From Candidatus Sericytochromatia bacterium (GTDB taxonomy: Bacteria > Cyanobacteriota > Sericytochromatia > UBA7694): a stretch of DNA of 64,000 nt. The stretch covers positions 83,732 to 147,731 of the forward strand of contig CAXRDE010000016.1 in NCBI GenBank assembly GCA_964229355.1, in the 5' to 3' direction. A program made the position numbers and the translations under genes. This document shows, in pieces, positions 1-17,646 of this stretch. The notes under the pieces are model-generated. The model made no database searches. It was not told the DNA's origin and saw only the letters and a list, made by a program, of their open reading frames with translations. Positions within the stretch are counted from its first letter, which is position 1. Every line of letters starts with the position of its first letter.

Positions 1-776
1 GCGATGCTTTTCAGCTGGTCCTGAATTTTGTCCAGGCTTTTTTCAAAGCCCTTTTGATTGCGTTGTAAAAGGCTCACCGCATTGGGATCTACCAGGGTTT
101 GGGCCTGATGCAAGTGTTTAATCATTGCGCGGTGTTGGGCTTGAATCATTTGGATGATTTCACTGCGGAGGCCCTCGTAATCGACTTTTTCTTCTTCCGT
201 CTCACCCACCAGCAGTTTCATTTGGCGTTCTTCAATGGCGCTGCCAAAATTTTGGAGTCCTTTTTCTAGCGCAGGAAGCTGTTGTTTGAGGGGCTCGGTT
301 TTAATGCCGATTTCATCCAGGGTTTGCAACTGTAATTGCAAGACAGCATAGTTGTCTTGTAGTGCATCCAGGTTTTGGTACAACACCTCAACCCCATCGA
401 GGTCAGCTTTGGGTAAAACCCGCAACTGCTCGACAATGGTTTGCACCTCTTGCTTGATGGTTTTATCCAGTTCCTGAGCGGCCTGAAGCTTACCCTGGTT
501 AATGCTCGTCGATAAATCCCCGATCTTTTGGTCGAGGGTTTTGACTTCATCGAGAAATTCGTTAAACATTTGAGAGAGCGCTACAAATTCGCGCTCTAAA
601 ATTTCGACTTCGTATTGGGTTCGGCTGAGAATATTTTCACCCAGGTGAGCCACCTGTAAACGTAACTCTGTCGTGTAGTCATCGTCTGTGAGAAGGTTTG
701 ACTGGTTACGGGCAATAATTTCTGTAGCGGTGAGTATCTGCTTTTTCTGAGGGGGGGTGGGAGCAGTATCTGACAT
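1..776 (-). CDS. Cys-free coiled-coil protein; 3' end cut by the window edge (first ~258 aa present)
   Basis: Not in the supplied track. Manual minus-strand translation from the ATG at 776..774 stays open to base 1: MSDTAPTPPQKKQILTATEIIARNQ...LQLQLQTLDEIG...KIQDQLKSI. The start overlaps the TAA of the upstream gene (TAATG). Q/L/E-rich and heptad-like. Confidence 0.6.
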   Translation of the reverse strand, partial: MSDTAPTPPQKKQILTATEIIARNQSNLLTDDDYTTELRLQVAHLGENILSRTQYEVEILEREFVALSQMFNEFLDEVKTLDQKIGDLSTSINQGKLQAAQELDKTIKQEVQTIVEQLRVLPKADLDGVEVLYQNLDALQDNYAVLQLQLQTLDEIGIKTEPLKQQLPALEKGLQNFGSAIEERQMKLLVGETEEEKVDYEGLRSEIIQMIQAQHRAMIKHLHQAQTLVDPNAVSLLQRNQKGFEKSLDKIQDQLKSI

Positions 777-1150
777 TAACCTTTCTCCTGCGGTCTCATA
801 TAAAAGACAAAGCTGGTGAGCTTCTCTAGTTTTTCGATTTTATCATGGGTTTTAACGGGCTCATTTAAGATTTCGCGCATGCGCTTGATTTGATCGTCAA
901 GCAGACCGTAGTGCTCGGCCATGTAGTCTCTGACCACTTCAATGGACTCTGAATATTTGACCATGCCGTCTACCACCGCATAGTAATCCCCGGAGACCAC
1001 ATCGTAATAGTCGTAGAGGCAATCAATCGCTTCTTGCCTGAATTCACAGCGGGCTTTTAGTGCGTTAAGCTGTTTGCTTAAGTTTGAGCGTTCGCGGCTT
1101 AAGTCTTTTAAGGCCTCGATGGCATACTTAATTCGTGATGAGTTGTGCAT
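776..1150 (-). CDS. Small acidic protein (124 aa), unknown family; chaperone-like by size and charge only
   Basis: ORF track. SD-like AAGGGGA upstream of the ATG at 1150. D/E/Y-rich core DCLYDYYDVVSGDYYAVVDGM. No family recognised. Confidence 0.6.
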   Translation of the reverse strand: MHNSSRIKYAIEALKDLSRERSNLSKQLNALKARCEFRQEAIDCLYDYYDVVSGDYYAVVDGMVKYSESIEVVRDYMAEHYGLLDDQIKRMREILNEPVKTHDKIEKLEKLTSFVFYMRPQEKG

Positions 1151-1190
1151 AGAACAGTCCCCTTGCTTTCAGTTTATCATTATGTCATGT

Positions 1191-1221
1191 AAAAAGCACC
1201 GTACAGACGTCTGCACGGTGC
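1191..1221 (-). terminator. Rho-independent terminator downstream of the 1348-aa gene
   Basis: The minus strand reads GCACCGTGCAGAC/GTCTGTACGGTGC (about 11 bp stem, one G-U pair, 4-nt loop) followed directly by TTTTT. It lies 20 nt after the stop at 1241. Confidence 0.6.
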
Positions 1222-1240
1222 CTGGGTCTAAAACAGATAA

Positions 1241-4200
1241 TTAGGTATAACTCTGAACACCGGTTGATGATCTGCGATCGTCATTTACACGTTGTGCGCG
1301 TGATTCTGCCGATTGCGCATTTGCTTGATCCCTTTGTACCCTTTGTCTATTGTGGTCGTTATAGTACTTGTCGCGGCCCTGACTCATGGTCTCTGGGTTT
1401 TGATCACCGTATTCAGGGCGTAATGAATAGTTTGCGGCTGTTTGAGGGAGATCAAAATTGGGTCGCTCATTAAAGTAACCGTTGAGACTTTGGGCTGTAT
1501 TCATTAGGCTACTTGCGTTGCCCAGGTTGTTGGCTACACCTTGCTTAAAGAGTTTTTCTGCCAGGTCATAGAGGGCTTCAGCTCTTTGCATGGTACCTGC
1601 TGCCCAACCTTTGAACAAGCCAGGAAGTCCTTCTACAATTTGCCCCATCTTACTGGTGCCTTCCGCTTCTTCATTGGGCGCTGGGGTCTGTCCTTGCACA
1701 GGGTCTACATAGTTAAAGGCTTCTGCATTTGAAACCTCTTCCATCGGTCTGGTAGGATTGGGATTGATGTCAGGAATCTCCATATCTACACCGGCTGTGT
1801 TCTGCAAACGTTCTGTATAGCTTTGCTGAGCGGGGGGTTGCTCCTCGGTTGGGGTTTGAGCTGAGGGCTGAGCCGTAGCGTTGAATTCAATGGACCGATT
1901 CTGGCCATTTTCACGAATCGTGCCAGCGTCATCTCCGCTGATGTGAATATTGCCGCCACTCTGTACCGCTGTGGCTTCACCCCGCCCTTCTTGAGCGCGG
2001 CTAGCCAGGTCTGCAGCGCTGATGTCAGGGTTGCTTTGCAGAGCCATGAGCGCTCTTAAAGCTGCCCGTCCTTCGTCACCAGCAGTTTCTTGACCGCCAT
2101 TGAGGCCCTGTACGCTCTCATGGTGCTCAATGTGGTGAAAGAGCTCTTCTGTGATGACTTCGTTGAGCTTGGTTTGATCCTGTAAAATATCGTTGGCTAC
2201 GCGAATTTCTCCAGGCCCACCATCGACGCCTCCTACATAAGCGCCATTGGCACCATTAAGTTCACTGCGATCCACTGCCACAATGTTGGGTGGAGTGAGT
2301 AGGCTACCATCGCTGGCCGCCGCGCGCAAGGTGTCATAGTGCCCCGCAATGGTGGGGTTGTTTGCGTCGTAGGCAGGTAGATTGTACACGTTTTGCATAA
2401 AGCTATTAAAAGGTGCGGGATCATCCAGTTCAGCAACGCGCTTCAGTTCCCCTGCGAAAGCTTTTGTCGCCAACTCTACGTTTTCAAAGTGATTGACTTC
2501 CGTGCGTTGGGACAGACTGTGAATACCGTCATTGATGCCTGCGGAGAGATTCAGCTCGGGGACGATGCCTAACATTGTGGTGGCAGATTTTAGATTCTCT
2601 ACAGCACCTATCATCGCCTCAGCCTGCGCAGGATCTGTTACCGCTTCTCGGATCTGTGCCGGTGTGACTTGCGTTACGGCGGCGGGGGAATAAGCACCCG
2701 AAACGACGCCGTGCTCTTGAAGCGCCTGGAAAATATTGCGTGAGCTGCTATCAATGACGCCTCCCAGCTCTTGCTGGTCTTCAGGGGTAATGTCGCCACC
2801 GCGTAGCTTTTGACGAATGTAGTCTTTGACCTGGTTGAGGCTTTCATTCGCGCGCTCAATACCTGATCTCAGTTGCGGCTCTCCATCTTCGCCGGGCGTA
2901 AATAACTGGGGGTTATTCTCAATCATCTGACCTTCTTGAAGACGCATTGCGTCTGTGGCCATGACAGCTTTATTTTTTAACTGCTCAAGATATGCCGGTG
3001 TAAGTTGAATCTCTTCGCTTTCAGGAGGGGCCGTGGTCACCATAATGGGCTTATCACCTGCGGCTTGTAATTGCGCTTCTAGCTGCTCGATATCGCCACT
3101 GATCTCAGCCATTAATCGGTCGGCCGTGCCCGGTGGGTAATTTCCTCCTGTTTCAGCCACATGGGTGTTGGCATGGATGCCTTCCACCGTACTTTTGGGC
3201 CATTCCTGGTCTGCTGTAGCAATGACTTGTGTACGAATGCCGTTCGCATCGCTAAGCCAGTCCTGAGGAGAGATGCTTTGGCCGTTAACTTGCAGGGTCT
3301 GTGCACCGCGCTGCTCCGGAGGGAGCATCTGGATCTGTTCCTCAATGCCTGCAAGCAATGCTTGTTTGCTTTCTGCCGAAAGGCCAGGCGCGTTGAGTTT
3401 ATTCAGATTATCGTTGATGGCGGCGTTGATGCTCGCTGGGGTAGGACCTGTAATTACAGTACCGCCACCGCCGTCTACTGCCACAGGAATAAAACCATTC
3501 CCCACGGTGGTATAGTCTTCTCCACCTGTACCTGCGTTATAACGCTGGGTAATATCGGCCTCTACGTCGTTAAAAATAGAGTCGGCGCCAGCGTTGGCAT
3601 GGCTAGATGAATCATGGAATTGTAGAAACTCCACAATGTTTTCTGCAGGGACAGTGGTTTGTTGACCGTTTCCGTCTGCTACCCGCAGCTCCATATTGGT
3701 GACGCCGCCAAACTGTTGCGCGACGCGATCGTTAATAATGTTTACAGAGTCTTCGCCGTAGAGTAATTGATCTTCACCACCGTTTGAGGTGTTGGCCTCA
3801 AGTACAATTCGAGCGTTCAAAACAGAATCTACAGAGCCTTCAGGGACATTGGCTTTCCCGTTACTAAAGGTAATGCCCAGGCTGGGTTGAAAGGTTTGAG
3901 CATGCAAGGCATACATATCCATCATGCTGGGGTTTGCAGCTCTGATGTCGTCTAAGGAAAGGTTGGTTCCATTTTTGCTATTGTAGAGGGCTTGATACTC
4001 ATCCAGGTAATCGTTGGGAATGGGTGTGTTTTGGGTGGCATCTCTGTAGTCATCAAGACGCGTTCTGCCTTCTCCCGTAGGAAACTGCCTTAAGTCAGAA
4101 GCCGTGAAATATTCATGGCGGGTGTTATCCAGACTGAAGCCGTCATGCATATTCCGAAGATGTCTTTGAACCTGATCGGGGCTTTGTTTGGCCACTTGCC

Positions 4201-5287
4201 CATACAAAGCGGTAGCGTTCAGTTCGTCGGTATAGCCAACGGCCTGGGTAAATTTAACGTGTTCTTGCAGGTTTTGGAAGTTTTCAAAATTTCCCAGCCC
4301 CATTTCTTTGGCCACGGCGTCTTTGTAGGCTTTGCCGTCGACACGCTTACCATCTCGGTTAAGAATAAGTGCTTCACCGTTTTCGGCAATACCCGCATAC
4401 CTGAATCCCAATTTACTTGCCATTTTTTCGTTAAAGCTAACGGCGCCTGGAAGGTTGGGATTGTTAAAGTTAAGGCTCGCACGACCCACATACTGGAAGG
4501 GGACTTGCATTTCACGGCCCAGAATGGCTTCTGCCGTGGCGCCGTCATAGGTGGTATCACCTACCTGCTCACCGTTACCTAAAGAGGGGTAACCCTGACT
4601 TGTGTACTGTTGTACCAGGTGGCTGTTGCGATCTGCCTCTCCAGGCGTACGGGCGATGCGGTAGATTTTTCCTGCAGGCCCCGGGGTTTCTCCATTTTCA
4701 GGTTGCGTAACGGTTTCATTTCTGCGCTCGGGGTTATGGACGGGTACGGGTTCAAACACCGGCTCTCTTGGAGGAATAATCGGTGGGTCTTCAGGTGTTC
4801 TGCGTTCTTCGGGGCTGGGAAGAACGGTCCAGGTTTCTTTTTCGACCCGTGTATAACCCATGCCCACTTTGGCGTTGGGATCTTTGATCATTTCTAAGAA
4901 GAGGGGATCGATTTGGATTGCAGCCACACTGCGAGAAGGACCCACAATGGCGGCGGCCAGCTTGGCTGTAATACTCATAAAGCCTTCGTTGGATTCAGCC
5001 GTTTGGAATTCGCGGCGTACCTGTAAGCTCCCTTTCTCGTAAAGCTCTCGGGTTTGCTGAGGCGTTAGAAGTACATCTCCGCCTAAAGAACCAATGTTTT
5101 CAGGGGTTACCGTAACGATGTCTGCATCAACGAAGGCGCTTTCGGGAATGATGCTGCTACCGCGATAAAGGTTGTTACCTCCATCGGGACCCCGATATTC
5201 GGCCTGGGTTGTTTGAGAGGGGCGCATTTGCCCAATTCTATTTTGATAAGGGTTGCTGGCACCACCAACGCCGCTTACGCTGCTCAT
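1241..5287 (-). CDS. Giant Cys-free protein (1348 aa), unknown function; possible HxxEH motif and Arg-rich C-terminal tail
   Basis: Uninterrupted 4 kb ORF with SD GAGGAG 7-8 nt upstream of the ATG. No signal peptide and no Cys in the translation. Pro-rich stretch PPIIPPREPVFEPVPV. Motif EELFHHIEHHE. Tail RQRVQRDQANAQSAESRAQRVNDDRRSS. Confidence 0.85.
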   Translation of the reverse strand: MSSVSGVGGASNPYQNRIGQMRPSQTTQAEYRGPDGGNNLYRGSSIIPESAFVDADIVTVTPENIGSLGGDVLLTPQQTRELYEKGSLQVRREFQTAESNEGFMSITAKLAAAIVGPSRSVAAIQIDPLFLEMIKDPNAKVGMGYTRVEKETWTVLPSPEERRTPEDPPIIPPREPVFEPVPVHNPERRNETVTQPENGETPGPAGKIYRIARTPGEADRNSHLVQQYTSQGYPSLGNGEQVGDTTYDGATAEAILGREMQVPFQYVGRASLNFNNPNLPGAVSFNEKMASKLGFRYAGIAENGEALILNRDGKRVDGKAYKDAVAKEMGLGNFENFQNLQEHVKFTQAVGYTDELNATALYGQVAKQSPDQVQRHLRNMHDGFSLDNTRHEYFTASDLRQFPTGEGRTRLDDYRDATQNTPIPNDYLDEYQALYNSKNGTNLSLDDIRAANPSMMDMYALHAQTFQPSLGITFSNGKANVPEGSVDSVLNARIVLEANTSNGGEDQLLYGEDSVNIINDRVAQQFGGVTNMELRVADGNGQQTTVPAENIVEFLQFHDSSSHANAGADSIFNDVEADITQRYNAGTGGEDYTTVGNGFIPVAVDGGGGTVITGPTPASINAAINDNLNKLNAPGLSAESKQALLAGIEEQIQMLPPEQRGAQTLQVNGQSISPQDWLSDANGIRTQVIATADQEWPKSTVEGIHANTHVAETGGNYPPGTADRLMAEISGDIEQLEAQLQAAGDKPIMVTTAPPESEEIQLTPAYLEQLKNKAVMATDAMRLQEGQMIENNPQLFTPGEDGEPQLRSGIERANESLNQVKDYIRQKLRGGDITPEDQQELGGVIDSSSRNIFQALQEHGVVSGAYSPAAVTQVTPAQIREAVTDPAQAEAMIGAVENLKSATTMLGIVPELNLSAGINDGIHSLSQRTEVNHFENVELATKAFAGELKRVAELDDPAPFNSFMQNVYNLPAYDANNPTIAGHYDTLRAAASDGSLLTPPNIVAVDRSELNGANGAYVGGVDGGPGEIRVANDILQDQTKLNEVITEELFHHIEHHESVQGLNGGQETAGDEGRAALRALMALQSNPDISAADLASRAQEGRGEATAVQSGGNIHISGDDAGTIRENGQNRSIEFNATAQPSAQTPTEEQPPAQQSYTERLQNTAGVDMEIPDINPNPTRPMEEVSNAEAFNYVDPVQGQTPAPNEEAEGTSKMGQIVEGLPGLFKGWAAGTMQRAEALYDLAEKLFKQGVANNLGNASSLMNTAQSLNGYFNERPNFDLPQTAANYSLRPEYGDQNPETMSQGRDKYYNDHNRQRVQRDQANAQSAESRAQRVNDDRRSSTGVQSYT

Positions 5288-5355
5288 AAGTCTAAATCTC
5301 CTCTAAGTTCTCTTACACGCTTCTAGTGTATATATACCCATTTTTGAGTAAGTTA

Positions 5356-5391
5356 ATCACGGCGATGAAAATATATTTTTATCGCCGTGAT
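5356..5391 (-). other. Intergenic stem-loop between the 2114-aa and 1348-aa genes
   Basis: Perfect 11-bp inverted repeat ATCACGGCGAT ... ATCGCCGTGAT with a 14-nt A/T loop, 12 nt below the stop at 5403. No T-tract follows, so it may be an RNA stability or processing element rather than a clean terminator. Confidence 0.45.
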
Positions 5392-5402: not shown

Positions 5403-8400
5403 TTATAAGACAATACCATCCTGGGGTAATTGGGTAGAGCTTTGTGCTAACTCAAGACGCTCCACAAACTCTCGCATACTTTGAACAGGGTTACTAAAAG
5501 GGCTGCGAAGTTGCTGAATGGTTTCGGTCAACTGCTCCAACATATCCATTTGTTGTGCCTGTTCAATAATCATGCCAGGATTTAAGCCAATTAATACGGC
5601 GATATTGGCGAAGTTAGAGTCGCTGGCCACTGCAGATAGCAATTCGCTTTGGACTTCTTGCTGTTCACCGGTGGTTGCGGGGGTTGTATTCTCGGCGGAG
5701 CTGCCATTTGCATTACCCGTAGCACCAGCACCGCCAGCTCCACCAGCTCCACCAGCATTGCCAGCTCCACCAGCTCCACCAGCACCACCAGCATTGCCAG
5801 CTCCACCAGCTCCACCAGCACCGCCAGCACCGCCAGCACCACCAGCCTCACCAGCTCCACCAACGTCTCCTACGGCATCTCCATTGGTGCTGCCAAAGGT
5901 AACGCCCATTTCATCGGCATACTTTTGGGCTGCAGCCAATTGTTTGGTCGCGGCCTCCAAACGTACGCGCGCATCCTGGAGTGCTTCCATGGCTGCTTTA
6001 TAAGCCTGAATTCCAGGCAGTAGAGCGTTAAGGGTTTCACCCAGGAAGCGGGTGCTTTGGTCCAAAAAGGAACCAAGTCCTTCACCAAAACGCTGTGCAC
6101 CGTTTTGCTCTTCATCGCCATATCGGCTACGCAGGCCGCCTTCGGCCTGAGCAAGCGTTCGCTGGCTTTGAGCCTGTTGTTCTGGTGTCGCTTCTGTACC
6201 ATCAGCAGCTACTGTTGGCCCATTGGAGTTTACATCAACGGTAAATTCTCCCGAGTTTCCGCGTTGAGTGACGTTTACATTGACGGTGCTACGCGTTCCT
6301 TCAGCATTGGTAAACGCCACATTGGTCGCTTGTACTTGAGAAACGCTACCGTCAAAGCTTGCGCCCACTTCAACCCGTCCCAGTGCACTACTGGGGTTAA
6401 ACCGAATCTCTCCAGCAGTGTTTACACCAGCGCCGAGATCCTGAAGGGTAATGCTTCCCCGGTCTAACCCTTCGCTCTCCACGAATCCGTCTAAAATATC
6501 TTGTGCAAGCTTTGTGTCCTTAGCGGTTAAAGCTGCCTGAAGATTTTGTCGGGTTTGGGCAATGCGTTCCGCTTTATCCGCATCTCCCACTTGCACAAGC
6601 GCCTGTGCGTTTTCATCCCCTGTCAGGGCTTGTATGCCCAGGGTCTGAAATTTCACCGAAGCGTTTGCATTGTCAAAAGAGTTGATTAACGCTCTTTCAC
6701 TGCTCACCACGTTATTGTACTGAGTCGCAGCGTTACGTTGGGTTTGTGACTGGAAATTGAGGCGGTTATCCTGAATCACTGCATCGGTCAACTTTTGTAC
6801 TTTTTGTTCGTCATTGACGCCAGCCTGTCTAATGACTTCACTGATGGCTCTTCTCGAATCATCTGTGTTGATGTTACGCAAGGCGTTGTTTTGCAATATA
6901 TTGCTGCTCTTGATATCTTCAATAACTTTCTTAGATGTCTCTTGATTGATTCCGTTTGCCTTTAGAGCTGCAGAGAGGTTTTCGCCCTGTGCGTTGAGCC
7001 TTCCTTTTTGTTCTACCAAACGCTCGGCCGTAATGCTCGCATCGGTTTCGCTCAGCCCCTCTGAGGTTAAGAAGTTGCTCAGTAGCTCTCTTGCCTTTTC
7101 TGGCTGATTTTGTTGAAGTGCAGCGAGAAAATTTTGATCGTTATTGGCTTTATTTAAAGCATTTGAGATATTTGCATCCCTTCTGTTAGCTCCCGTGGTC
7201 TCGCCACCGATATACACGTTCAACTCATTTAGTACAGGTGCCAGGGCTTCTCTTTGCTCAGCGGTTAAGCCCCGAGTATTGAGACGAACGCCTCCATTTT
7301 GGTCAACACCGTAGCCAATATCAAAGTATTGACCACCCAGGTCAAAACGTAGACGACCTTCTTGCTCAAAATTATTGTTGAAGCTGTTGTTGTCATCTCT
7401 TCGTAATGCACTGGTGTTGTTGTTGCGCTCTACAACTTGAACGTTGGTTGCCCCAAAACTCGCAAGTTTATTTTCAAAACCTTTCTTTCGTTGCGCGGCG
7501 TTAAAGAAGTCTGAGCTGCCTTGAATCGACTGTGTACCGGCCTTATCACCAGAGGCATTAACAATCGCTAGCTCACCACTGGCTGCATCACGCTCCAGTT
7601 GAAGCTTCGTACCGTCATTGAGTAAAACACCCGCAGAATAAATGTTACCTTCGCTATCATATTTTAAATTAACACTTTGGACCGATTCACCTGACTTGAA
7701 AATGCCAAAGTCCACCTGGAAAGCGCGATTGAGTTCTGCCGTCAGTTCCCGTGCGGCCTTTTCATTTCTCTCAAATTTCTCCGTAAAGGCTGCTTTATCT
7801 TGTCCCAGAGCTTCAGCAAGATCTCCTGCTGCATTGGCATTATCTGGTCTACCAGGTCCACTGTTGGGACCGCTGATGCCTGTGAACCGGCTAAACGCAT
7901 CGCTAACACGATCTCCGAAATTGCGCTCTCTTCCAGGCTCGTTACCTTCTGTGATTTTGCCATCTGCACCAATGGTAAAACTTCGGGCTGGGTTATTAGG
8001 ACCGTTGGCAGCAATGTTGATAGAAATACTTCCATCGCTATTTGCGACACGTTGGGCTCCAGACAAGTCAAGACCAGCGGCCGTTAAAGAACGCAGGGTC
8101 TGTTGCGCATCTGAGCTGGCGCCCGGTAATTCTCCACCCTGTAACTGATCGTTGTTTTCTTGTCGGACCTCGCCTGTAGTCGTTCCGATCCGCTGTTGAA
8201 TTTGCTGGCTGTTTAGAGGGGTTGCTCTAAGGTTTCGGTTTTTACCTTCCGGATCTAAATAGTCGGCAATAATCCGATTGTACTTTGCGGCATTTTTTTC
8301 AGCCACCCCAGCGTTTTCGTTTGCAAACTCTTCGAGGGTGCGTTGCTGGCCATCTCTGCCGATAATACCTTCTACATTCCCCTGAGCGTTAAATACCAGG

Positions 8401-11400: not shown

Positions 11401-11747
11401 TGATTCGTTGCGGGATCATTGGCGTTTACATCTTCGTCTTCCTGGGCTTTGTTAATACCTTTACCAATTCGGTTGGCAACAAAGGTGGTCACCATTTGTA
11501 AGGTGGCCAGGCCCACTTGTTTTGCGGCAATAGCGGCTTGTTTTTCGGCCAGTTGTTTTGCACTTTTAGCAGCGTAAAGCTCCATTTCGGCTTTGCGCTT
11601 GGAACGGATCTGGGTGTTTTTATCCACCTTATCCATAATGTCTTTGTTGTCATCGTTGACCTGGCGGGTAACCTGTTGAATAGCGCTGGCGACGTTGCGG
11701 GCACGGGTTGTGGCTTCGCGAGCGGCGGTATACATCCGAATGTTCAT
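5403..11747 (-). CDS. Giant secreted- or surface-type protein (2114 aa), unknown family; shares N- and C-terminal modules with the 389-aa upstream gene
   Basis: 6.3 kb ORF with SD AAGGAG 7 nt upstream of the ATG. No signal peptide. No Cys, Trp or His by my reading. N/Q/G/T/S/D-rich with beta-helix-like stretches (GITISGNANLNQGNFTINKNALNVLNGTVGV). Gly-Ala repeat near the C-terminus. Confidence 0.85.
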   Translation of the reverse strand: MNIRMYTAAREATTRARNVASAIQQVTRQVNDDNKDIMDKVDKNTQIRSKRKAEMELYAAKSAKQLAEKQAAIAAKQVGLATLQMVTTFVANRIGKGINKAQEDEDVNANDPATNQRQEDRGFGGDLIEVLKEAFFINAITDKFKGKDGNEEEGNNPPVEETNANDETNTNNSTTQTVTRPANQGLLDRVATAIQDTLNPQRDQAIASDDEDQNLTEAPGADAEDKAGILARVKDAVNSVLGNEENNLSSEQQEQIRGRVDAVIQEEENAEGPINEEGLTQRVQSAINEVLNGNSNTNAANTNAGASGDAITGNNTTDNTDALASDSDAVENDGANPVNTNVQNNTNGGGTAITTTPGQTSDAVDNSTNGDEVSPAAPQNQNTTGDDENLVVSTTQGRASAAVDNDTNTGVIENRGTTAQTDEEGNSFSERVSNGAAKALNVLGIKDGPEGPSALGELFKMIAALFKKLNEMSGSEKPKSRFARLGQGINALAYAVSDPNANGLIGSAIRDTVVNPLIGVATLPGRALSTATANAQENVNGNLEGNEQEIADELENTGAVSTSSQTRLGESLQRRVRVQAESNGEELSDADVKSRADQGVQAFLGNVVGQQIGQSLTATVKDGDNVTLTNASGVAVDISKDTLSRAAAGDVNAQNEIKARFANPNGTPVGDGSVSADATADPTGDPPKNVTGSETNETPATAEGIAKATEEPEVSDANKALLEQVNKLAENNGVEALKGARVINGEVTLRDGRTVSQNDAKKGGGITISGNANLNQGNFTINKNALNVLNGTVGVDSREKGRINNAVSAGLNLSRDGNNNLNLNFDANARSQESATIGDRNNSVQLTIDNRAIGNGRLVTTPSGGQEQLSNQTIKDAANGDLNRSERRALGVNLNRPDQIDTRAAFSAAFSGSGNVESALRDARASNRNDRLTNEFFGGFPGRQQGLSDPTSDLRENTQAQLSEAVIGELNKTGTDKTKFLEGLGFNSEQIGQILNNNGSVNERQLGRALEARIGLTTSGDEQNRTVQAIVNRGTSAEADAALAGLINNGQGGNAVGSFTTNKNGQNQVTVTGTSGTGGQQSQGDIEQGVRQEIANRLSKNTLDGGLGLGRIDVNDLVFNAQGNVEGIIGRDGQQRTLEEFANENAGVAEKNAAKYNRIIADYLDPEGKNRNLRATPLNSQQIQQRIGTTTGEVRQENNDQLQGGELPGASSDAQQTLRSLTAAGLDLSGAQRVANSDGSISINIAANGPNNPARSFTIGADGKITEGNEPGRERNFGDRVSDAFSRFTGISGPNSGPGRPDNANAAGDLAEALGQDKAAFTEKFERNEKAARELTAELNRAFQVDFGIFKSGESVQSVNLKYDSEGNIYSAGVLLNDGTKLQLERDAASGELAIVNASGDKAGTQSIQGSSDFFNAAQRKKGFENKLASFGATNVQVVERNNNTSALRRDDNNSFNNNFEQEGRLRFDLGGQYFDIGYGVDQNGGVRLNTRGLTAEQREALAPVLNELNVYIGGETTGANRRDANISNALNKANNDQNFLAALQQNQPEKARELLSNFLTSEGLSETDASITAERLVEQKGRLNAQGENLSAALKANGINQETSKKVIEDIKSSNILQNNALRNINTDDSRRAISEVIRQAGVNDEQKVQKLTDAVIQDNRLNFQSQTQRNAATQYNNVVSSERALINSFDNANASVKFQTLGIQALTGDENAQALVQVGDADKAERIAQTRQNLQAALTAKDTKLAQDILDGFVESEGLDRGSITLQDLGAGVNTAGEIRFNPSSALGRVEVGASFDGSVSQVQATNVAFTNAEGTRSTVNVNVTQRGNSGEFTVDVNSNGPTVAADGTEATPEQQAQSQRTLAQAEGGLRSRYGDEEQNGAQRFGEGLGSFLDQSTRFLGETLNALLPGIQAYKAAMEALQDARVRLEAATKQLAAAQKYADEMGVTFGSTNGDAVGDVGGAGEAGGAGGAGGAGGAGGAGNAGGAGGAGGAGNAGGAGGAGGAGATGNANGSSAENTTPATTGEQQEVQSELLSAVASDSNFANIAVLIGLNPGMIIEQAQQMDMLEQLTETIQQLRSPFSNPVQSMREFVERLELAQSSTQLPQDGIVL
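5721..5865 (-). repeat. In-frame GC-rich tandem repeat encoding (GAG/GNA)n inside the 2114-aa gene
   Basis: Plus strand shows reiterated ccagctccaccagc(a/t)(c/t)(c/t)gcc units. It translates to GGAGEAGGAGGAGGAGGAGNAGGAGGAGGAGNAGGAGGAGGAG. Confidence 0.8.
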
Positions 11748-11801: not shown

Positions 11802-12971
11802 CTAGGCTGGACTTGCGCTAGAACCTGCTGCCAACAAGGCCTCTAGTTTTTGTAACTTCTGCAGGGCTGCAGCAGCTTGTTTTTTGGCGGCCTGATATTC
11901 TACGACGGCATCTTGATATTCTTCTTCATACTGTTTAGCGACACTGTTCATGGCCATAAACTGGTTGAGAGAGGTGCCAAGGGGTTTAAAGAGAACTTTT
12001 TGGAAAGCATCTTTTGCACCCTCACCGAATTTATTAATCACATTTTTCTCTTTGAAGATGTTTTCAGCTTGATTGGCCACGCGATCGTCAATGTTCAGGC
12101 CTCTTTGAATATTTTCGTTTCGCAGCAAGCCCAACGCGCTTTGCGCACTTTGGCGGTAAGCGGGGTTGATTTGCGTGGAGCGACTGAGCATTCCAGCGGC
12201 CATGCGCTCCCCGGCATCGCTTCCTACGGGGGTTGTACTGCCTTCTACAGAGCGTGAACCCTGAGCAAAAAAGCCGTTTTCTCCAAATAACTCACCCCGC
12301 AAGGCGTCGCTCATGTTACCGGTGGCCGGATCTAAATCGCCAGGATTAAAGGCGGGGGGTGGGCCTTCTTGTAGCATGGCACGCAGCGGACTGCCCTCAG
12401 GGGTGTTTTCCAATAAATTGCGAGCCATTTCGGTCTGAGAGACGTTTTGAAAGCCCTCCACCTTACCTGTGGTGGTGTTAACCCCCATAATCGAAAAGTT
12501 TCTTTGAGAGGGGTTATAAGATACAACGGCGCCTTCCTGACTGTTCCCGCCTGCGTTTGCAATTTGAAAAGAAACGGCATATTTGTTAATGTCTGCATTG
12601 CTCATGGGGGCGAGCTGGCTGTCGTCAGACACCTGTCGCTCATCTTTATTGAGCATGTCTGCGACGCCGTCCAAAATGCCTCCACCGAGGGTGCCAAGTA
12701 GTACAAGGGCTGCTGCATCTTTGGCGCGCTCCATACGATCCTTTTTGAGCTGCATCATTTTTTCGGCTTTTTCTTTTTTGATGTCAGCGCTTTTGGCTTC
12801 ATATTCGGCTTCAATCTTGCTACGCATTAATTCGTCTTTGCGTTGTGCATTGGCGGTGCCCACGGTTTTTACATCGTCTTGCACGGCTTTAATGTTTTGA
12901 CCCTGGTTTTGATGGAATTGGAGGGCCGCATCTGCAGCCTGGCGGGCGTATTCAAATGACATAAAGCTCAT
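11802..12971 (-). CDS. Cys-free 389-aa protein, 'mini' paralog of the 2114-aa protein (same N and C modules)
   Basis: SD GAGGAG 10 nt upstream of the ATG. N-module RSKIEAEYEAKSADIKKEKAEK followed by the hydrophobic Gly-rich AAALVLLGTLGGGILDGV. C-module KFGEGAKDAF...YQDAVVEYQAAKKQAAAALQKLQ. Both align by eye to the 2114-aa protein. Confidence 0.8.
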   Translation of the reverse strand: MSFMSFEYARQAADAALQFHQNQGQNIKAVQDDVKTVGTANAQRKDELMRSKIEAEYEAKSADIKKEKAEKMMQLKKDRMERAKDAAALVLLGTLGGGILDGVADMLNKDERQVSDDSQLAPMSNADINKYAVSFQIANAGGNSQEGAVVSYNPSQRNFSIMGVNTTTGKVEGFQNVSQTEMARNLLENTPEGSPLRAMLQEGPPPAFNPGDLDPATGNMSDALRGELFGENGFFAQGSRSVEGSTTPVGSDAGERMAAGMLSRSTQINPAYRQSAQSALGLLRNENIQRGLNIDDRVANQAENIFKEKNVINKFGEGAKDAFQKVLFKPLGTSLNQFMAMNSVAKQYEEEYQDAVVEYQAAKKQAAAALQKLQKLEALLAAGSSASPA

Positions 12972-13086
12972 AAATTAAATTCTCCTCAATATGAAGCGTT
13001 GGTGGATAGGCAGAGAGATCCGCATACCTTATCTGCTATATACCCCGAACCCCTGTGCCTTTAAACAAAAAATTAACAAACAGTTA

Positions 13087-14235
13087 TTAAAAACCGTCCA
13101 GAAGCTGGCGCAGGATATAGCGTTTGTCTTCACCTTGAGAAATGCTGAATTGCTTTTCGCCGAGGACATTTTCCACATCTCGGCTATTTTGAGCGTAAAT
13201 GCGAAAACGGACTTCCGTACGCGTGTCACCTTTCTGGGGCGGTGATGAAATCTCTTCGAGCCGTACGGCTTCTATTTTTTGATGAGAAATGGTGTTCATG
13301 GACTGGATCATCTGGCGTTGGGCATAGTCCTCGTAGGCAGCCACAAGACTATTATGGGCTGCTGTTACTGTGGGGGCATTCACATACAAATAGTACTGAA
13401 ATGGAGCCGTATTGCCTTCCACCTGAATTTCCCAGTATTTTCCGCCCAGTTCGGCTTTGATTTCTGCATCCCTTTCTTCAGGGCTTCGGTAACGGTCATC
13501 TGCCAGGTATTTGGCGGCGATCCAATACCGTGCTGTATCACTGGTTTCGATCTTGAGCCATTGTGCGTTATCGCTCTTGCCCACGAGCAAGACCATTGTG
13601 TTGCGCGGGATTTTCAAATCTACCGTCTGCGCGGGATTGTCGTCTGCTGAGGTGGGTGGTTCCAGATAGACCGGCGGGTTTTCTTGAATGATGTACTTTG
13701 AGGGATAGGGCTCATAGAGCACCTCGGGAATGGTTAAGGTGACCACCGAGGTGCTCTTTTTGAGGGTGCCACCCCCGCCGCCCGGGTTGCGTCCTTTGAG
13801 CTCCACCTGCACCTGATAAGAATCCCCTCGTTCAAAGCGATCTGTGAGTGCTGATGGGCTTGGACTGGGTTCTACCTTGGCGGGTTTGGAAAAGCTTTTC
13901 ATGACCATGGGAATGAGGAGCGCCAGGAGCATGAGCGCCACCAGGGTAATGCTAATACCGGCAATGAGTAGTGCATTTTCTTTGAGGGTATCTAAGAGAG
14001 GCTCCCACCATTTTTTATCGTGGTTGCCTTCGCTTTCTTGCACAAAGGCCACCATGTCGTGAAGTTCGTCAATGGTTTGCTGGACTTCATCGCGGGTGGC
14101 TTCGTCATGTACCCATTTTTGAGCCTGACGATAAGCTTTGAGGGCGCCCACCAAATCTCCTGTGTTATGAAGGCGTTGGGCCTCTTCCAGGGTTTCAGAT
14201 AATTGTTTTTTCTTGTGTTGTAGGGGTTCTGTCAT
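13087..14235 (-). CDS. Single-pass membrane protein with TPR-like cytoplasmic N-terminus and SH3b-like outer domain
   Basis: TM helix ALLIAGISITLVALMLLALLIPMVM. N-terminal LEEAQRLHNTGDLVGALKAYRQAQKW. WLKIETSDTARYWIAAKYL resembles bacterial SH3. Directly upstream of the giant genes. Confidence 0.65.
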   Translation of the reverse strand: MTEPLQHKKKQLSETLEEAQRLHNTGDLVGALKAYRQAQKWVHDEATRDEVQQTIDELHDMVAFVQESEGNHDKKWWEPLLDTLKENALLIAGISITLVALMLLALLIPMVMKSFSKPAKVEPSPSPSALTDRFERGDSYQVQVELKGRNPGGGGGTLKKSTSVVTLTIPEVLYEPYPSKYIIQENPPVYLEPPTSADDNPAQTVDLKIPRNTMVLLVGKSDNAQWLKIETSDTARYWIAAKYLADDRYRSPEERDAEIKAELGGKYWEIQVEGNTAPFQYYLYVNAPTVTAAHNSLVAAYEDYAQRQMIQSMNTISHQKIEAVRLEEISSPPQKGDTRTEVRFRIYAQNSRDVENVLGEKQFSISQGEDKRYILRQLLDGF

Positions 14236-14243
14236 AAGAGGGC

Positions 14244-15074
14244 TCAGGGCTTACACTGTTGCTTGCAGGCGGTTTTATCGCCCAGGCTACAGGCTTTTGC
14301 AAAATCTTGCTGGGCTTGCCTGCATTGGTTTTTGACCTGATAGGCCAACCCACGGTTATAATAAGCGAGCGCCATTTTGGGGTTGTGTTGAATGGCCTGG
14401 GTGAGATCGTAAATGGCTTTGGGATGTTGGCGCAGTTTAAAGTACAAAAGTCCCCGCTGAAACCAGGCTTCTGCAGAACGGGGGTCTTTTTGCACACTAT
14501 AGGTAAAATCTTGCAGGGCTTCTGTGGTCTTTCCCAGGTTTTGGTAGACCTGGCCGCGCTGCATATACAGCAGGGGTTGCGGATTTCTTTGAATGGCGCC
14601 ATTGAGATGAGCCAGAGCTTCGTTCATTTGCTTATTGCTGAGATAACTCTGCAGCAAGGCTTTTTGAAAGGGGGGATGATCGGGTTTGAGCTCGTAAGCC
14701 AGACGAAAATCCTCTAAAGCTTCTTTGTTTTTGTTTAATTTTTGGTATAAGGTCCCTCGGTTAAAATAGGCTTCGCTGTCTAAAGGCAGACGTTTCAAGA
14801 CTTCACTGTAGTCTTGAATGGCTTCGGTGTATTTTTTTAAACCGGTATAGGCGCCTGCGCGATTAAAATAACCGTTGACGTGATTCGAAGCTGCTTTCAG
14901 ACACTGATTATAGGCCTGGAGGGCTTCGTTATACTTCCCTTTCGCTAACCACTGATCTCCGTTTTTACATGCGGTGGGCAGGGCTTCAGCAGCCTGTGCG
15001 CTGAGACCTGATAACGTAACCGGTACTGCTCCCCACAGCAGCATTGAGACCAAAAGAGAGTGAGCAATTTTCAT
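14244..15074 (-). CDS. Secreted TPR-repeat protein
   Basis: Signal peptide MKIAHSLLVSMLLWGAVPVTLSGLSAQA. Repeated 34-aa units such as AYFNRGTLYQKLNKNKEALEDF and AWFQRGLLYFKLRQHPKAIYDL. Confidence 0.8.
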   Translation of the reverse strand: MKIAHSLLVSMLLWGAVPVTLSGLSAQAAEALPTACKNGDQWLAKGKYNEALQAYNQCLKAASNHVNGYFNRAGAYTGLKKYTEAIQDYSEVLKRLPLDSEAYFNRGTLYQKLNKNKEALEDFRLAYELKPDHPPFQKALLQSYLSNKQMNEALAHLNGAIQRNPQPLLYMQRGQVYQNLGKTTEALQDFTYSVQKDPRSAEAWFQRGLLYFKLRQHPKAIYDLTQAIQHNPKMALAYYNRGLAYQVKNQCRQAQQDFAKACSLGDKTACKQQCKP

Positions 15075-15156
15075 GACCCAGTGAGAACCCCGCTTGCGAT
15101 GATTGCCCGATCATAGCATGACTGAGCACATGCGTCTAGAACGGGGCCGTATGGGG

Positions 15157-17646
15157 TTAGCTTAGCCGTTGATAAGCCGTCTGATACTGTTGCTTGAGCC
15201 CTGAGGGAATCAGCTCTCCCGCTTCAATGAAGGTTTGCTCCATTTGTTCTCCCCAGGCTTCGAGCTGGCGCAGATCCTGAGCGGATAGTGCCTGTTCAAA
15301 CAATTGGGCAAACACTGCGTCACAGGTGGGCTCAAACTGTAGCCAGCGGGTGAGGTAAGCCCTGGCCTGTTCGGGTTCTCGACGTGCTTGCCACTGGCGT
15401 GCACACCAGAGAGTCAGCTCACGACCCTGACGCTGGTAGTGTTCCCGCTCTGCTTGCCAGAGATCTGCAAAGTCCAGCTCAGGTAAAAATGTGCCCTGGT
15501 AGAAAGCCAGCGTTTTTTCAACGGTGTCCAGTGCTTCAGGTTCTGCTTTGTGCTTCAACCAGTAGTCATAGCCATCACTAAAGTTTTCCGCATCCCACTG
15601 GTAATGGCTTTGGCGGTTAAAGCGGTAGCAAGCGTCTTGAAAATGAATGTACTGAGACGTTTGCTTGCCTTTGCGCTGAGGTTCGAGCACTTTTCTTAAG
15701 GCATGAATGTGCACGTCTAGCGAGCGCAGGGCTTGCTCCAGATCGTCTTGCCCGGTGAGCCAGTCGGCAAGGGTCTCACGGTGAATGCTGTGGCTGTGCA
15801 ATAAAAGTTGAACCAGGATATGTCGGGATTTTTTTCGGGGCCAGCGTCCCACGGGTTTGTCCTGTAAAAATACCTGAAATCCGCCGAAGGTCTGGATGCG
15901 CAGCTCCGCAGAGGTGGTGGCTAACACGCGGCGTGTGGACGAGCTGGGCTGCGCTTTGCTAGCGGAGACGGGCAGTAAGGCTTCAGCCTCTCTTACCAGG
16001 CCTTGAGAACCGTTTTCCTGGGCCTGGTGCAAAATATGCTGCAGCAGAGGGTAAGCGCTGTCTGGTGGGGTTTGGCGTAAAAGGGAGAGGGCTTGATTGA
16101 GTTGAGCGTAGAGGGCTGCAAAGCTGTTGGGTTCCAGGCGCTCCAAAGCCTGCGCGTGTAAACGCAAGGCGCGATCTTCCTGCTTTAGAAAACGCCATAA
16201 GCGCGCTTCCACGTCCCAAATGAGGGGCCAGAGTGAATCCCAGTTGAGGGTTTCTGCAATTTGTTTGGCCTGGGTGATCAGGGTTTGCGCGAGCGTGACG
16301 TCAATGCGTTCTCCCAATAGTTGAGCAAAGACCAGGTTCAGGTAAATAAGGGGTTGTCGTGTGAGCGGCAGCTTTTGTACCTGTTCTACGAGGGCCAAAA
16401 CCGCTGGAGCATCGGTACTTTGTTGGTGGTCCTGGAGCGCTTGTAAAAAATACAACATGCTCTGAATTTCGAGTTGCATGGCCGTGTTGCTGTCGTGATG
16501 GGCCAGTGCAAGGGCTTGTTGGTAGAGGCTTTCGGTTTGGTGGTATTGTCCCTGCTGATAATAGGTTAAGCCGCGCAATTGCACAGCACGGGTTTGAAAA
16601 CGGGTCACGTGCCGACCCCGTAAATTTTGGAGCTGATCTAAAAAATGGTGGGCTTCTGCATAATGAGCCTGTTGTCGCGCGCGGTTGGCGCGCAGATAGA
16701 GCCAGGCAGCCTGATCCTGAGGGTGGAGTTCTGTGGCGGCTTTCAGGAGTGGCTCAGCCTGACTTAACAGGCGATCACAGTCTTTCCATTGCCCCGCCTG
16801 TAAGTATTGGTGGGCCAGATGGGTCAATACTTTGAGCTGGTGCGCCGGCTCATCACTTAAACCTGCAGCGCGATAGAGATAAGCCCGTCGCTGAGATAAA
16901 TCTTCACTCTGTAGGGCTTGATGCAGCCAATAGTGAGGATTTTCTTTTTCGGCTTCTTTCTGTAGGCGTTGCCAGAGCTCGGAAGGAGCCTGTGTCCAGT
17001 ATGCAGGGGTGCGTTGGCGGTCCTGCAAGCGTCGGGTGAGCACCTGCAGGCACTGGGCGCTAGAGATCTCACCCAGGCGGACTTTGGTGTGTAAGAGCAA
17101 GGCCACGGGCCAGCCCCGGCAGGCTTCCCAGAAGGTTTGATCCTCAGCGGTCCAGGGTAAGTCCAGCCCTTGCCAATACGCCTGGCTGGTCTTCAGAGAC
17201 CAACAAAAATCTGACCTTTGATAAACATGTGCGCCTTCCACAAGCCACTGGCTTAAATCCAGAGCCGGTAAGGCTTCAAAAGCCAGCACAAAGCTGACGT
17301 TTTGGGGTGGGTTTTTTAAAAGGTGTTGCCAGAGTTCTGTGATTTCAGGGGCTGTCAACACCGTTTCGCCGTCGTCTTGAAACCACCACAGGGGCTCTGA
17401 TTGATGCTGTAACCATTGCAAGACATCGTGGCGGTTTGTCAGCGGCTGTTCTGCCTGCTGACTGAGGACCGCAAGATAATTCTGAAAACAAAATTTATCC
17501 AAAGCAGAAGCAGACAAAAATATGCTGTTTTGACCCCCGTGTTGCAAGGTTTCATGCCATTGTCTTAGTTGTTTGCTTTTGCCATACCCCGTGGGAGCCA
17601 CACACAGGGCTCCCGGGGGCTTTAATGCAGGCAGTGCCTGATGCAT
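15157..17646 (-). CDS. Large regulator with P-loop NTPase, TPR-like middle, and C-terminal winged-helix plus BTAD (SARP-type) domain
   Basis: P-loop APTGYGKSK near the N-terminus. C-terminal LRIQTFGGFQVFLQDKPVGRWPRKKSRHILVQLLL...HALRKVLEP (OmpR/SARP wHTH), then a BTAD-like segment FLPELDFADLWQAEREHYQRQGRELTLWCA. Confidence 0.7.
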   Translation of the reverse strand: MHQALPALKPPGALCVAPTGYGKSKQLRQWHETLQHGGQNSIFLSASALDKFCFQNYLAVLSQQAEQPLTNRHDVLQWLQHQSEPLWWFQDDGETVLTAPEITELWQHLLKNPPQNVSFVLAFEALPALDLSQWLVEGAHVYQRSDFCWSLKTSQAYWQGLDLPWTAEDQTFWEACRGWPVALLLHTKVRLGEISSAQCLQVLTRRLQDRQRTPAYWTQAPSELWQRLQKEAEKENPHYWLHQALQSEDLSQRRAYLYRAAGLSDEPAHQLKVLTHLAHQYLQAGQWKDCDRLLSQAEPLLKAATELHPQDQAAWLYLRANRARQQAHYAEAHHFLDQLQNLRGRHVTRFQTRAVQLRGLTYYQQGQYHQTESLYQQALALAHHDSNTAMQLEIQSMLYFLQALQDHQQSTDAPAVLALVEQVQKLPLTRQPLIYLNLVFAQLLGERIDVTLAQTLITQAKQIAETLNWDSLWPLIWDVEARLWRFLKQEDRALRLHAQALERLEPNSFAALYAQLNQALSLLRQTPPDSAYPLLQHILHQAQENGSQGLVREAEALLPVSASKAQPSSSTRRVLATTSAELRIQTFGGFQVFLQDKPVGRWPRKKSRHILVQLLLHSHSIHRETLADWLTGQDDLEQALRSLDVHIHALRKVLEPQRKGKQTSQYIHFQDACYRFNRQSHYQWDAENFSDGYDYWLKHKAEPEALDTVEKTLAFYQGTFLPELDFADLWQAEREHYQRQGRELTLWCARQWQARREPEQARAYLTRWLQFEPTCDAVFAQLFEQALSAQDLRQLEAWGEQMEQTFIEAGELIPSGLKQQYQTAYQRLS

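Follow-up and report, generated by a model that had tools for sequence, protein, structure and literature searches.

How might a protein of more than two thousand residues, carrying no recognizable signal peptide, leave a diderm cell? The question is raised by a 64,000-nucleotide stretch of contig CAXRDE010000016.1 from a Candidatus Sericytochromatia bacterium (hereafter the window), one end of which holds a string of minus-strand genes encoding a giant protein (p2114), two further large proteins (p389 and p1348), a small protein (p124) and a coiled-coil protein. Judged from the order and distribution of their homologues, these five genes are a vertically inherited, chromosomal and Sericytochromatia-specific module; provisionally, the five protein families are orphans by all searches made, and the module is new. 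We tentatively propose that the module specifies three exported or surface proteins, of which p389 and the giant are paired, served by a cytoplasmic p124 and coiled-coil protein—a reading that we hold plausible, though short of probable.

A five-gene string of constant order

A preliminary description of this DNA reported six consecutive minus-strand genes running from position 14235 down to position 1, a layout borne out by open reading frame (ORF) listing and translation. The first of the six, p382, belongs to the upstream neighbourhood considered below; the other five comprise the core:

p389: 11802–12971, minus strand, first core gene
p2114: 5403–11747, minus strand, giant protein
p1348: 1241–5287, minus strand, third large protein
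p124: 776–1150, minus strand, small, strongly conserved protein
coiled-coil ORF: 1–776, minus strand, ATG at 776, with 258 of its 391 aa inside the window

The Shine–Dalgarno sites reported earlier are present before p389 (GAGGAG), p2114 (AAGGAG), p1348 (GAGGAG) and p124 (AAGGGGA), and the start of the coiled-coil gene overlaps the stop codon of p124 (TAATG).

Twenty-four related loci of ~20 kb each were compared, the sequence read comprising the 64-kb window and ~20-kb flanks. Their gene order is constant: a p389-like gene, a giant, a p1348-like gene, a p124-like gene and a coiled-coil gene, followed by lipB, a gene of ~260 aa, and then truB and rbfA on the opposite strand. Synteny had been put forward as a check on the string, and the five-gene order was found in every relative recovered, at p389 identities down to 34%. 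One metagenome contig (L024) carries all five core genes and the lipB/truB/rbfA flank in a single stretch. Two remote p389 relatives (289 and 301 aa), from genomes of 39% and 61% guanine-plus-cytosine (GC) content and one of them on a closed 5.18-Mb contig, both precede a giant (2285 and 1383 aa, respectively) with a third large gene after it. Within the related loci, the p389-like proteins measure 386–544 aa, the p1348-like proteins 1334–1686 aa and the coiled-coil proteins 385–440 aa; giants measure 2254–2763 aa where complete, and 1383–2763 aa when the remote orthologues are included. Homologues of p124 (120–137 aa) lie directly 3' of the third large gene in seven lineages.

Where relatives of p389, p1348 and the coiled-coil protein carry a name, it is, with one exception, Candidatus Sericytochromatia, Blackallbacteria or unclassified Cyanobacteria. 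The coiled-coil family comprises 53 clusters (49–92% identity), all but one from Sericytochromatia or Blackallbacteria records; the sole taxonomic exception is a partial coiled-coil sequence labelled Candidatus Obscuribacterales. All 18 sequences of the p1348 family (alignment A2) are from Sericytochromatia. The GC content and codon usage of the core string agree with those of the remainder of the window. No viral relatives of the core proteins were found in IMG/VR, and a viral origin was rejected because that database holds no such loci.

The core genes diverge at two rates. Measured against the closest complete relative, identity is 41% for the giant, 48% for p1348 and 69% for p389; the corresponding values are 83% for p124 and 86% for the coiled-coil protein, and 83–84% for the flanking acyl-CoA ligase and hydrolase. 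Across genomes, identity to the window ranges over 29–41% (giant), 27–48% (p1348), 40–69% (p389) and 59–86% (coiled-coil protein), and p124 retains 59–83% in lineages where the giant retains 29–41%. Relative to the flanking housekeeping enzymes, the large proteins change two to three times faster, and p124 and the coiled-coil protein at the same rate.

One side observation concerns the copy number of the region. Loci L011 and L006 both derive from the 67-kb contig CAWCRG010000015.1, which carries a second, convergent copy extending from the hydrolase to the giant and frameshifted into short ORFs. This copy represents a duplication in decay or else an artefact of long-read assembly.

The core proteins match no described family

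None of these proteins had been placed in a named family from sequence alone, and searches of Pfam, NCBIfam, PHROGs and PDB by sequence and profile likewise gave the core proteins no significant match. The giant p2114 drew no matches in any of the four databases, and a profile of the giant C-terminal domain (A6) retrieved nothing from Pfam or PDB. A profile built from 26 p389 homologues, run exhaustively against 1.84 billion representative proteins, returned just 15 matches, with neither giants nor outgroup families at E ≤ 1e-3. Pfam searches of the 18 p1348 members identified no family common to them and no peptidase family, and the family profile found nothing in PDB. For p124 (profile A4), no significant match was obtained in Pfam, NCBIfam or PDB; a marginal match to a PHROGs transposase family (E = 0.001) was treated as coiled-coil noise. 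The coiled-coil protein (profile A3) matched nothing in Pfam, NCBIfam or PDB. Sub-threshold PDB matches to a designed Kelch repeat and to Gly/Ala linkers are artefacts.

Structure comparison, which had also been suggested, gave the same outcome for the two proteins modelled with AlphaFold. In Foldseek searches, the p389 model (mean predicted local distance difference test score, pLDDT, 71.5) reached a best E of 0.14 against PDB and 0.11 against BFVD, and the model of p1348 residues 1–1200 (pLDDT 65.9) a best E of 0.15 against PDB; no match was significant in this range of 0.11–0.15. The non-significant top matches include a cyanophage pre-ejectosome protein, flagellin, FlgL, colicin Ia, YopO, XaxAB and SipD. 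These are long-helix proteins, and the matches therefore reflect helical architecture only. A phage or contractile-injection origin was rejected: PHROGs yielded nothing beyond the p124 noise, IMG/VR contained no relatives, and the best BFVD match had E = 0.11. Nothing on this locus emerged from literature searches on flagella, secretion or FHIPEP in Sericytochromatia or Blackallbacteria.

Composition and synthesis cost of the large proteins

The compositional features that first drew attention to the string were confirmed by residue counts. p389, p2114, p1348 and the part of the coiled-coil protein inside the window contain no cysteine, and p2114 also has 0 Trp and 0 His; p382 is likewise Cys-free. 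At the rate of the 39 other window ORFs, 42 Cys would be expected in the 4109 Cys-free residues. The combined frequency of Cys, Trp and His in those 39 ORFs is 5.5%, which predicts 117 such residues in 2114 aa where none is observed (ln P(0) = −120). The avoidance is conserved: orthologous giants of 1863–2763 aa contain 0 Cys, 0–2 Trp and 0–9 His (His 0–2 in all but one), and the pattern is kept in ten orthologous giants whose centres have diverged beyond alignment. p2114 is rich in Ala, Gly, Asn, Thr, Ser and Gln and has few aromatic residues. As reported earlier, no Sec or Tat signal is visible by inspection in p389, p2114 or p1348, and a lipoprotein signal was found in none of the three.

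The large proteins are also cheap to make. With Akashi–Gojobori amino-acid costs, synthesis requires 19.0 high-energy phosphates (~P) per residue for the giant and 20.8 for each of p1348 and p389, against 23.6 ± 1.5 for other ORFs. The three rank second to fourth cheapest of 45 window ORFs, and the giant lies 3 standard deviations below the window mean. Two exported proteins in the window served as controls: a lipoprotein (18.6, the cheapest ORF) and a periplasmic HtrA (21.2, sixth). Values for p124 (24.6) and the coiled-coil protein (22.0) are cytoplasmic-like. Smith and Chapman are said to have found in 2010 that extracellular proteins use cheap amino acids. Three independent lines, namely composition, synthesis cost and evolutionary rate, would place the three large proteins outside the cytoplasm, and p124 and the coiled-coil protein inside it.

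Architecture of p389 and the giant

The N-terminal module of each large protein is strongly conserved and leads into a low-complexity linker; that of p389 and of the giant combines a charged helix of ~75 residues with a Gly/Ala-rich hydrophobic segment.

The N-terminus of p389, MSFMSF(D/E)YA, is invariant in the family alignment (A1, 26 sequences, 43–81% identity). Its first six residues (12954–12971, minus strand; same positions in L001–L017) are identical in all 26 aligned homologues, and the codons vary synonymously, so selection acts on the peptide itself; perhaps it serves as a signal in export or assembly, or is needed for processing of the N-terminus. There follow a charged helix of ~90 residues, a Gly/Ala-rich, weakly hydrophobic segment (86–104), a central alpha/beta domain and a C-terminal helix. 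The model places the first helix at 5–95, the alpha/beta domain, which is its well-predicted part, at 125–310, and a 52-residue helix at 334–385.

In p2114, the conserved N module of helix and Gly/Ala hydrophobic segment occupies residues ~1–100. Residues 1–70 of the giants, beginning MNI(R/K)MYTAAREATTKARNVASAIQQ, are 60–77% identical across the class; a Gly/Ala/Val hydrophobic segment follows at ~76–100 (Kyte–Doolittle 1.2–2.1) and then a low-complexity acidic or Pro/Gly linker. The centre of p2114, ~1750 aa, is non-repetitive and fast-evolving, and cannot be aligned between subclades. The C-terminal part comprises a conserved helix (~1880–1945), a (GAG)n linker (~1950–2005) and a conserved terminal domain of ~75 aa. 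No internal repeats were detected in p2114 by self-BLAST (E ≤ 1e-3), and RTX GGxGxD nonapeptides number 0 in p2114 and 0–4 in its orthologues, scattered and without arrays. An RTX adhesin was rejected for want of both nonapeptides and repeats.

End modules shared by p389 and the giant, as proposed in the preliminary description, find weak confirmation: BLASTP gives E = 1e-4 for the C end and 0.04 for the N end, and hhalign of the two family profiles gives E = 2.5e-5 (probability 75%) for the C helix and 3.6e-4 for the N module. These comparisons support a paralogous C helix in p389 and the giant and, more weakly, a paralogous N module.

The linker of the giant varies between assemblies. L002 and L003 encode identical p389 proteins and yet differ in the copy number of a short tandem repeat in the giant's N-terminal linker (locus positions 12262–12542); in one of the two, small indels also break the giant up into two ORFs, of 1891 and 322 aa.

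Architecture of p1348, p124 and the coiled-coil protein

p1348 has a disordered N-terminus and then a near-invariant module at ~70–160 (ESNEG...GPSRS...IDPLFLEMIKDPNA...GYT), followed by a Pro-rich linker, a mostly helical body and a disordered tail rich in Gln, Asn and Arg. A second conserved region at ~985–1090 reads GANGAY...G.ILLARDL...EEMFHHLE...GDEGRAG. This motif layout may resemble that of a zincin-type effector domain; the presumed correspondence lies in a Gly-rich strand, a hydrophobic strand, an ExxH helix and an acidic GDEG downstream. HExxH itself is absent, the first His being Glu (E-E-M-F-H-H-L-E) in 16 of 18 members.

p124 was described earlier as a small acidic protein. It is small but barely acidic (22 Asp + Glu against 20 Lys + Arg), and it contains 2 Cys. 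Two motifs mark its family, an invariant YYDVVSGDYYAVVDG and, at the C-terminus, FVFYM(R/K)P; sequence inspection predicts a mostly helical fold. A cytoplasmic location is probable, and the role could be that of a chaperone or adaptor. The coiled-coil protein is acidic, and in relatives it has repeated units of ~100 aa.

A further observation concerns the 3' end of the coiled-coil gene. In several genomes, its last 4 nt are also the first of a BPL_LplA_LipB-family gene (L018, 12536–13216; L020, 15650–16279; L023, 11158–11841), a hint that the coiled-coil protein is translationally coupled to an enzyme of lipoate or biotin ligase type.

Transcription of the string

Two signals bound the three large genes:

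putative sigma-70-type promoter of p389–p2114–p1348: 13037–13065, minus strand, TTTAAA, 17-nt spacing, TATATA
intrinsic terminator: 1189–1223, minus strand, 13-bp perfect stem, 4-nt loop, U5, directly 3' of p1348

We infer the promoter from the intergenic sequence; it would give p389 a 5' untranslated region of ~58 nt opening with GATAAG. The TATATA/GATAA(G) block, ~60 nt before the ATG, is kept in L002, L006, L007 and L008 and takes variant forms in other loci. A consensus promoter scanner did not list the 13037–13065 element. No structured p389 leader was detected, its fold being no better than that of shuffled sequences (z = −0.2).

The terminator, formerly given at 1191–1221, is real and is placed here at 1189–1223: its folding energy is −24.5 kcal/mol (z = −5.3), and none of 200 shuffles folded as well. 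GC-rich hairpins follow the third gene at the same position in L018, L019, L020 and L023. L024 has no hairpin after the third gene, and there the p124 homologue starts 4 nt downstream. Of the single transcript envisaged in the preliminary description, the terminator end survives; the string as a whole, with hairpins in four relatives, is probably two units. Most economically, the arrangement would be read as a p389–giant–p1348 transcript with partial termination, followed by a unit of p124, the coiled-coil gene and possibly lipB.

A tentative model: three proteins beyond the cytoplasm and two within

In the model we tentatively favour, a promoter ~60 nt before p389 would drive a p389–giant–p1348 transcript ending at least partly at the terminator, with p124 and the coiled-coil gene as a tightly linked second unit. 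The products p389, giant and p1348 would be exported from the cytoplasm to function on the cell surface or outside it. There, p389 and the giant could co-assemble via their paralogous terminal helices, p389 acting as a base, adaptor or cap and the non-repetitive, fast-evolving centre of the giant forming the exposed part. p1348 would add an accessory activity, and its EEMFHHLE...GDEG region may bind metal. Remaining in the cytoplasm, p124 and the coiled-coil protein would handle the N-terminal modules before export, possibly as chaperone, adaptor or scaffold.

Export of these proteins had been proposed at the outset, by analogy with flagellar, type III or type I secretion system (T3SS or T1SS) cargo. 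The general proposal is supported indirectly, by the avoidance of Cys, Trp and His, by low cost and by divergence; the named routes are not. They stand as analogy only; there are no RTX repeats and no flagellin or T3SS family matches.

The T1SS giants and the S-layer or motility proteins of cyanobacteria offer one comparison. Like the RTX adhesin LapA, RsaA, Sll1951 of Synechocystis and SwmA/SwmB of Synechococcus, p2114 is giant, acidic, Cys-free and without a signal peptide; its cheap composition, conserved ends and variable body recall the same proteins, and surface exposure is the most economical reading of these features. Unlike them, it has no RTX nonapeptides, no tandem Ig-like repeats and an ordinary codon bias. 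No SLH or other S-layer anchoring domain was found in Pfam or NCBIfam searches, and neither the window nor the related loci, the extent of this survey, have ABC, membrane fusion protein or TolC genes adjoining the string. Expression at S-layer level was rejected because there is no codon-bias signal (effective number of codons, ENC, 52.4 for the giant and 51.8 for p1348; window range 42–56), although codon bias is weak genome-wide and the test has low power.

Several observations weigh against the model. No export machinery was found in the window or in any ~20-kb locus. Codon bias in the three large genes is unremarkable (ENC 47–52), which speaks against a coat made in very large amounts, an S-layer or flagellin for example. 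With Kyte–Doolittle values of 1.1–2.1, the hydrophobic segment is weak and marks neither a clear signal-anchor nor a clearly soluble protein, and the end-module paralogy between p389 and the giant is statistically modest. As to the second unit, a strong terminator separates p1348 from p124, and the downstream housekeeping genes lipB and truB are as syntenic as p124 and the coiled-coil gene; the link of these two genes to the large trio must therefore rest on other grounds. Those grounds are adjacency, a matching restriction to the class and the one lineage with a 4-nt spacing (L024).

Alternative explanations

Anchoring in the inner membrane is the alternative that survives best, although we consider it unlikely. 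The Gly/Ala segment of p389 and the giant would be an uncleaved signal-anchor inserted by Sec/YidC, leaving the N-terminal 75 residues in the cytoplasm to bind the coiled-coil protein and p124, and the large C-terminal part would form a periplasmic or envelope scaffold or tether of TonB- or AsmA-like type. The position of the segment (~76–105) is kept in p389 and all giants, its Kyte–Doolittle value reaches 1.9–2.1 in 6 of 11 giants, Pro/Gly-rich linkers follow directly, and by inspection the flanking charges obey the positive-inside rule for an N-in topology; the helix on the presumptive cytoplasmic side is the best conserved part, like p124 and the coiled-coil protein. In the window giant (1.22) and most p389 members (1.1–1.8), however, the segment is less hydrophobic than an ordinary transmembrane helix (2.85 in p382), and p1348 has no such segment. 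Cheap residues and a hypervariable centre also fit an exposed or lost protein better than a periplasmic one.

A second alternative, export of the large proteins in unfolded form by a type-III-like, flagellum-derived route, brings in one further gene of the window:

HTH-FlhA_C protein: 49674–50813, plus strand, 379 aa, soluble, with an N-terminal HTH_17 and a complete FlhA/SctV (FHIPEP) cytoplasmic domain

The FlhA/SctV cytoplasmic domain docks chaperone–substrate complexes in flagella and injectisomes. In the window protein it is recognized by FHIPEP (E = 9e-44) and by Bacillus subtilis FlhA_C (E = 2.6e-29 over two stretches), and there is no transmembrane part. A transcription factor derived from a T3SS substrate-docking domain is one possibility for this protein. 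It also qualifies the earlier statement that no export genes lie in the window. Under the type-III-like scenario, which we judge to have only a small chance of being right, p124 would be a FliS/FlgN-like chaperone, the terminal helices would polymerize outside the cell, and HTH-FlhA_C would act as a sensor coupling export to transcription.

The resemblances to flagellar axial proteins are several. The giant, free of Cys, Trp and His, poor in aromatic residues and rich in Ala, Gly, Asn and Thr, has a flagellin-like composition such as is found in flagellin, FlgK and FlgL with their FliS/FlgN partners; its conserved helical termini enclose a hypervariable centre, and there is no Sec signal. A smaller paralogue (p389) and a small conserved partner gene adjoin it, the best, non-significant, fold matches of p389 include flagellin and FlgL, and the window encodes the complete FlhA/SctV cytoplasmic domain fused to HTH. 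Conserved termini, a variable centre and a lack of Cys and Trp are, however, common to several unrelated surface-protein classes. Sequence and fold homology to axial proteins is absent: p389, p2114 and p1348 have no match to Flagellin_N/Flagellin_C or Flg_bb_rod at E < 0.1, nor to any translocator or chaperone family at that threshold, and Foldseek pairs p389 with flagellin and FlgL only at E ≥ 1 and probability ≤ 0.06. In length the giant exceeds an ordinary flagellin four- to fivefold; it also has an extra C-terminal domain and the Gly/Ala hydrophobic segment, and no flagellar genes adjoin it. Its codon bias is not the one expected of a very abundant filament protein. The invariant N-terminal peptide is likewise unlike filament proteins and unlike T3SS substrate signals, which are degenerate.

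The translocators of injectisomes (YopB/YopD, IpaB/IpaC) provide a second type-III model, in which consecutive Cys-free hydrophilic proteins combine coiled coils with Gly/Ala-rich hydrophobic segments, as p389 and the giant do. In size and layout p389 resembles a minor translocator, and the small partner gene recalls the class II chaperones of translocator operons. No similarity to SctE/SctB/SctA or to CesAB/SycD-type chaperones was found for the core proteins. Unlike in translocator operons, the sole nearby TPR protein bears a signal peptide and does not accompany the core in all lineages (LcrH/SycD-type TPR models score just for TPR276, which bears that signal peptide, at 52.6 bits against a cut-off of 104.8), and no injectisome genes were seen in the window or loci. 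We know of no T3SS translocator of 2114 aa. Nor does HTH-FlhA_C firmly join the operon to such a system. No copy was found by tblastn in 23 related loci, and no close relatives were found in a metagenome scan; with the gene 36 kb away and without a membrane domain, its link to the giant-protein operon is therefore only hypothetical.

That the trio is a set of secreted effectors or toxins used in predation or competition, with p389 as a membrane-inserting translocator, the giant for delivery or binding, p1348 as a zincin-derived enzyme and p124 and the coiled-coil protein as chaperones, is improbable. This reading would account for the fast divergence, for the p1348 motifs (GANGAY...G.ILLARDL...EEMFHHLE...GDEG) with their possible resemblance to a zincin effector layout, and for the non-significant fold matches of p1348 to helical domains of YpkA/YopO, SdeC and XaxAB. 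Compared with zincin metallopeptidase effector domains of the DUF4157 type, however, p1348 has Glu in place of the first metal-binding His and no family or fold match; more broadly, no peptidase or toxin family was matched, and Foldseek E values are ≥ 0.15. The locus is single-copy, syntenic and vertical across the class, with no immunity-like gene or mobile-element signature, and its variable part is central rather than C-terminal. A polymorphic toxin system was rejected on similar grounds: a central variable part, a conserved C-terminus, highly conserved 3' genes and a syntenic, vertically inherited locus.

Finally, an intracellular scaffold or cytoskeletal assembly, its composition set by low-complexity or structural constraints, would suit the lack of Sec, Tat or lipoprotein signals in the three large proteins, the absence of adjoining secretion genes, the coiled-coil partner and the ordinary codon bias, but it is highly improbable: it gives no reason for conserved avoidance of Cys, Trp and His over >2000 freely diverging residues, the cost signature matches the exported controls of the window rather than cytoplasmic proteins, and the flanking cytoplasmic proteins change two to three times more slowly than the giant.

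Upstream neighbours

Three further genes lie 5' of the core:

p382: 13087–14235, minus strand, single-pass membrane protein
TPR protein: 14244–15074, minus strand, neighbour 5' of the string
regulator-like protein (reg829): 15157–17646, minus strand, 829 aa, neighbour 5' of the string

The preliminary description spoke of a regulator-linked operon. The comparison does not sustain this, as the regulator, TPR and membrane-protein genes accompany the string in closer relatives only. A set comprising the hydrolase, acyl-CoA ligase, regulator, TPR protein and p382 is confined to relatives with a p389 identity of 52–72%, and two other subclades carry different genes 5' of the string. A functional tie of these genes as a core feature was rejected because the 5' neighbourhood differs among three subclades. 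By gene order, then, the regulator link is lineage-specific synteny, outside the core.

p382 is a single-pass membrane protein, as described (transmembrane segment at ~90–110; Kyte–Doolittle peak 2.85 at 90–108), but the SH3b-like outer domain once ascribed to it has no match at E < 0.1. Its homologues occur in L002, L003, L006 and L007 only; the gene is absent 5' of the string in L001, L004, L008, L012–L017 and L021. The TPR protein (TPR_1, E = 7.7e-42), syntenic like the regulator in closer relatives only, has by inspection a plausible Sec signal, in keeping with the secreted protein first described. The SARP-type label of the regulator is unsupported: Trans_reg_C is matched at E = 1.2e-5 with 25.7 bits against a cut-off of 26.2, and there is no BTAD match. 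Its order of N-terminal P-loop, TPR repeats and C-terminal OmpR-type winged helix is the reverse of that in large SARPs.

Other genes of the window

Several genes lie outside the subjects treated so far. Divergent from HTH-FlhA_C is the lipoprotein used as a cost control (48623–49345, minus strand), which has a lipobox (LGAC), an FN3-like domain by eye, a (GSS)n repeat and no Pfam match; its amino-acid composition is the cheapest in the window. Genes for an Arf/MglA-like small GTPase (28277–28855, minus strand) and a DUF4388 (PATAN-type) protein (29309–30196, minus strand) adjoin, a pairing characteristic of proteins that regulate motility and polarity among myxobacteria and cyanobacteria. A cbb3-type oxidase cluster (54670–61690, minus strand) includes a 738-aa ORF in which CcoN and CcoO are fused (COX1 + FixO), together with CcoP, FixG and a P-type ATPase. 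A signalling-type run (39917–44753, plus strand) encodes a PrkA-like AAA/kinase (761 aa), a Memo-like protein and a STAND/AAA_16-type NTPase; just 5' of it, 37458–39710 encodes a 750-aa Q-rich coiled-coil protein of cheap composition with no family match. A Rad52/Rad22-family single-strand-annealing protein (33335–34018, minus strand) stands in a chromosomal setting; in bacteria this family is usually phage-associated.

Significance for Sericytochromatia

Sericytochromatia are the uncultured, non-photosynthetic sister class of the oxygenic cyanobacteria, and their cell biology is almost unstudied. A class-wide, vertically inherited module of orphan proteins at one site is a likely basis of a lineage-defining envelope or surface structure. 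Going further, the module might be a new kind of surface appendage with its own export logic, in which the giant and p389 would co-polymerize via their terminal helices, with p124 as chaperone and the coiled-coil protein as scaffold, and would exit by a non-Sec route, either new or a flagellar T3SS remnant sensed by HTH-FlhA_C. We regard this as a long shot. If it is true, the appendage would be a defining cell-biological trait of Sericytochromatia. Should the proteins instead prove to be merely a divergent coat or adhesin, the value of the module would lie mainly in annotating five 'dark' families. The giant's conserved avoidance of Cys, Trp and His provides a clean test of how huge signal-less proteins exit a diderm cell, and if export uses a new route or a repurposed flagellar gate, the answer would bear on the evolution of protein secretion.

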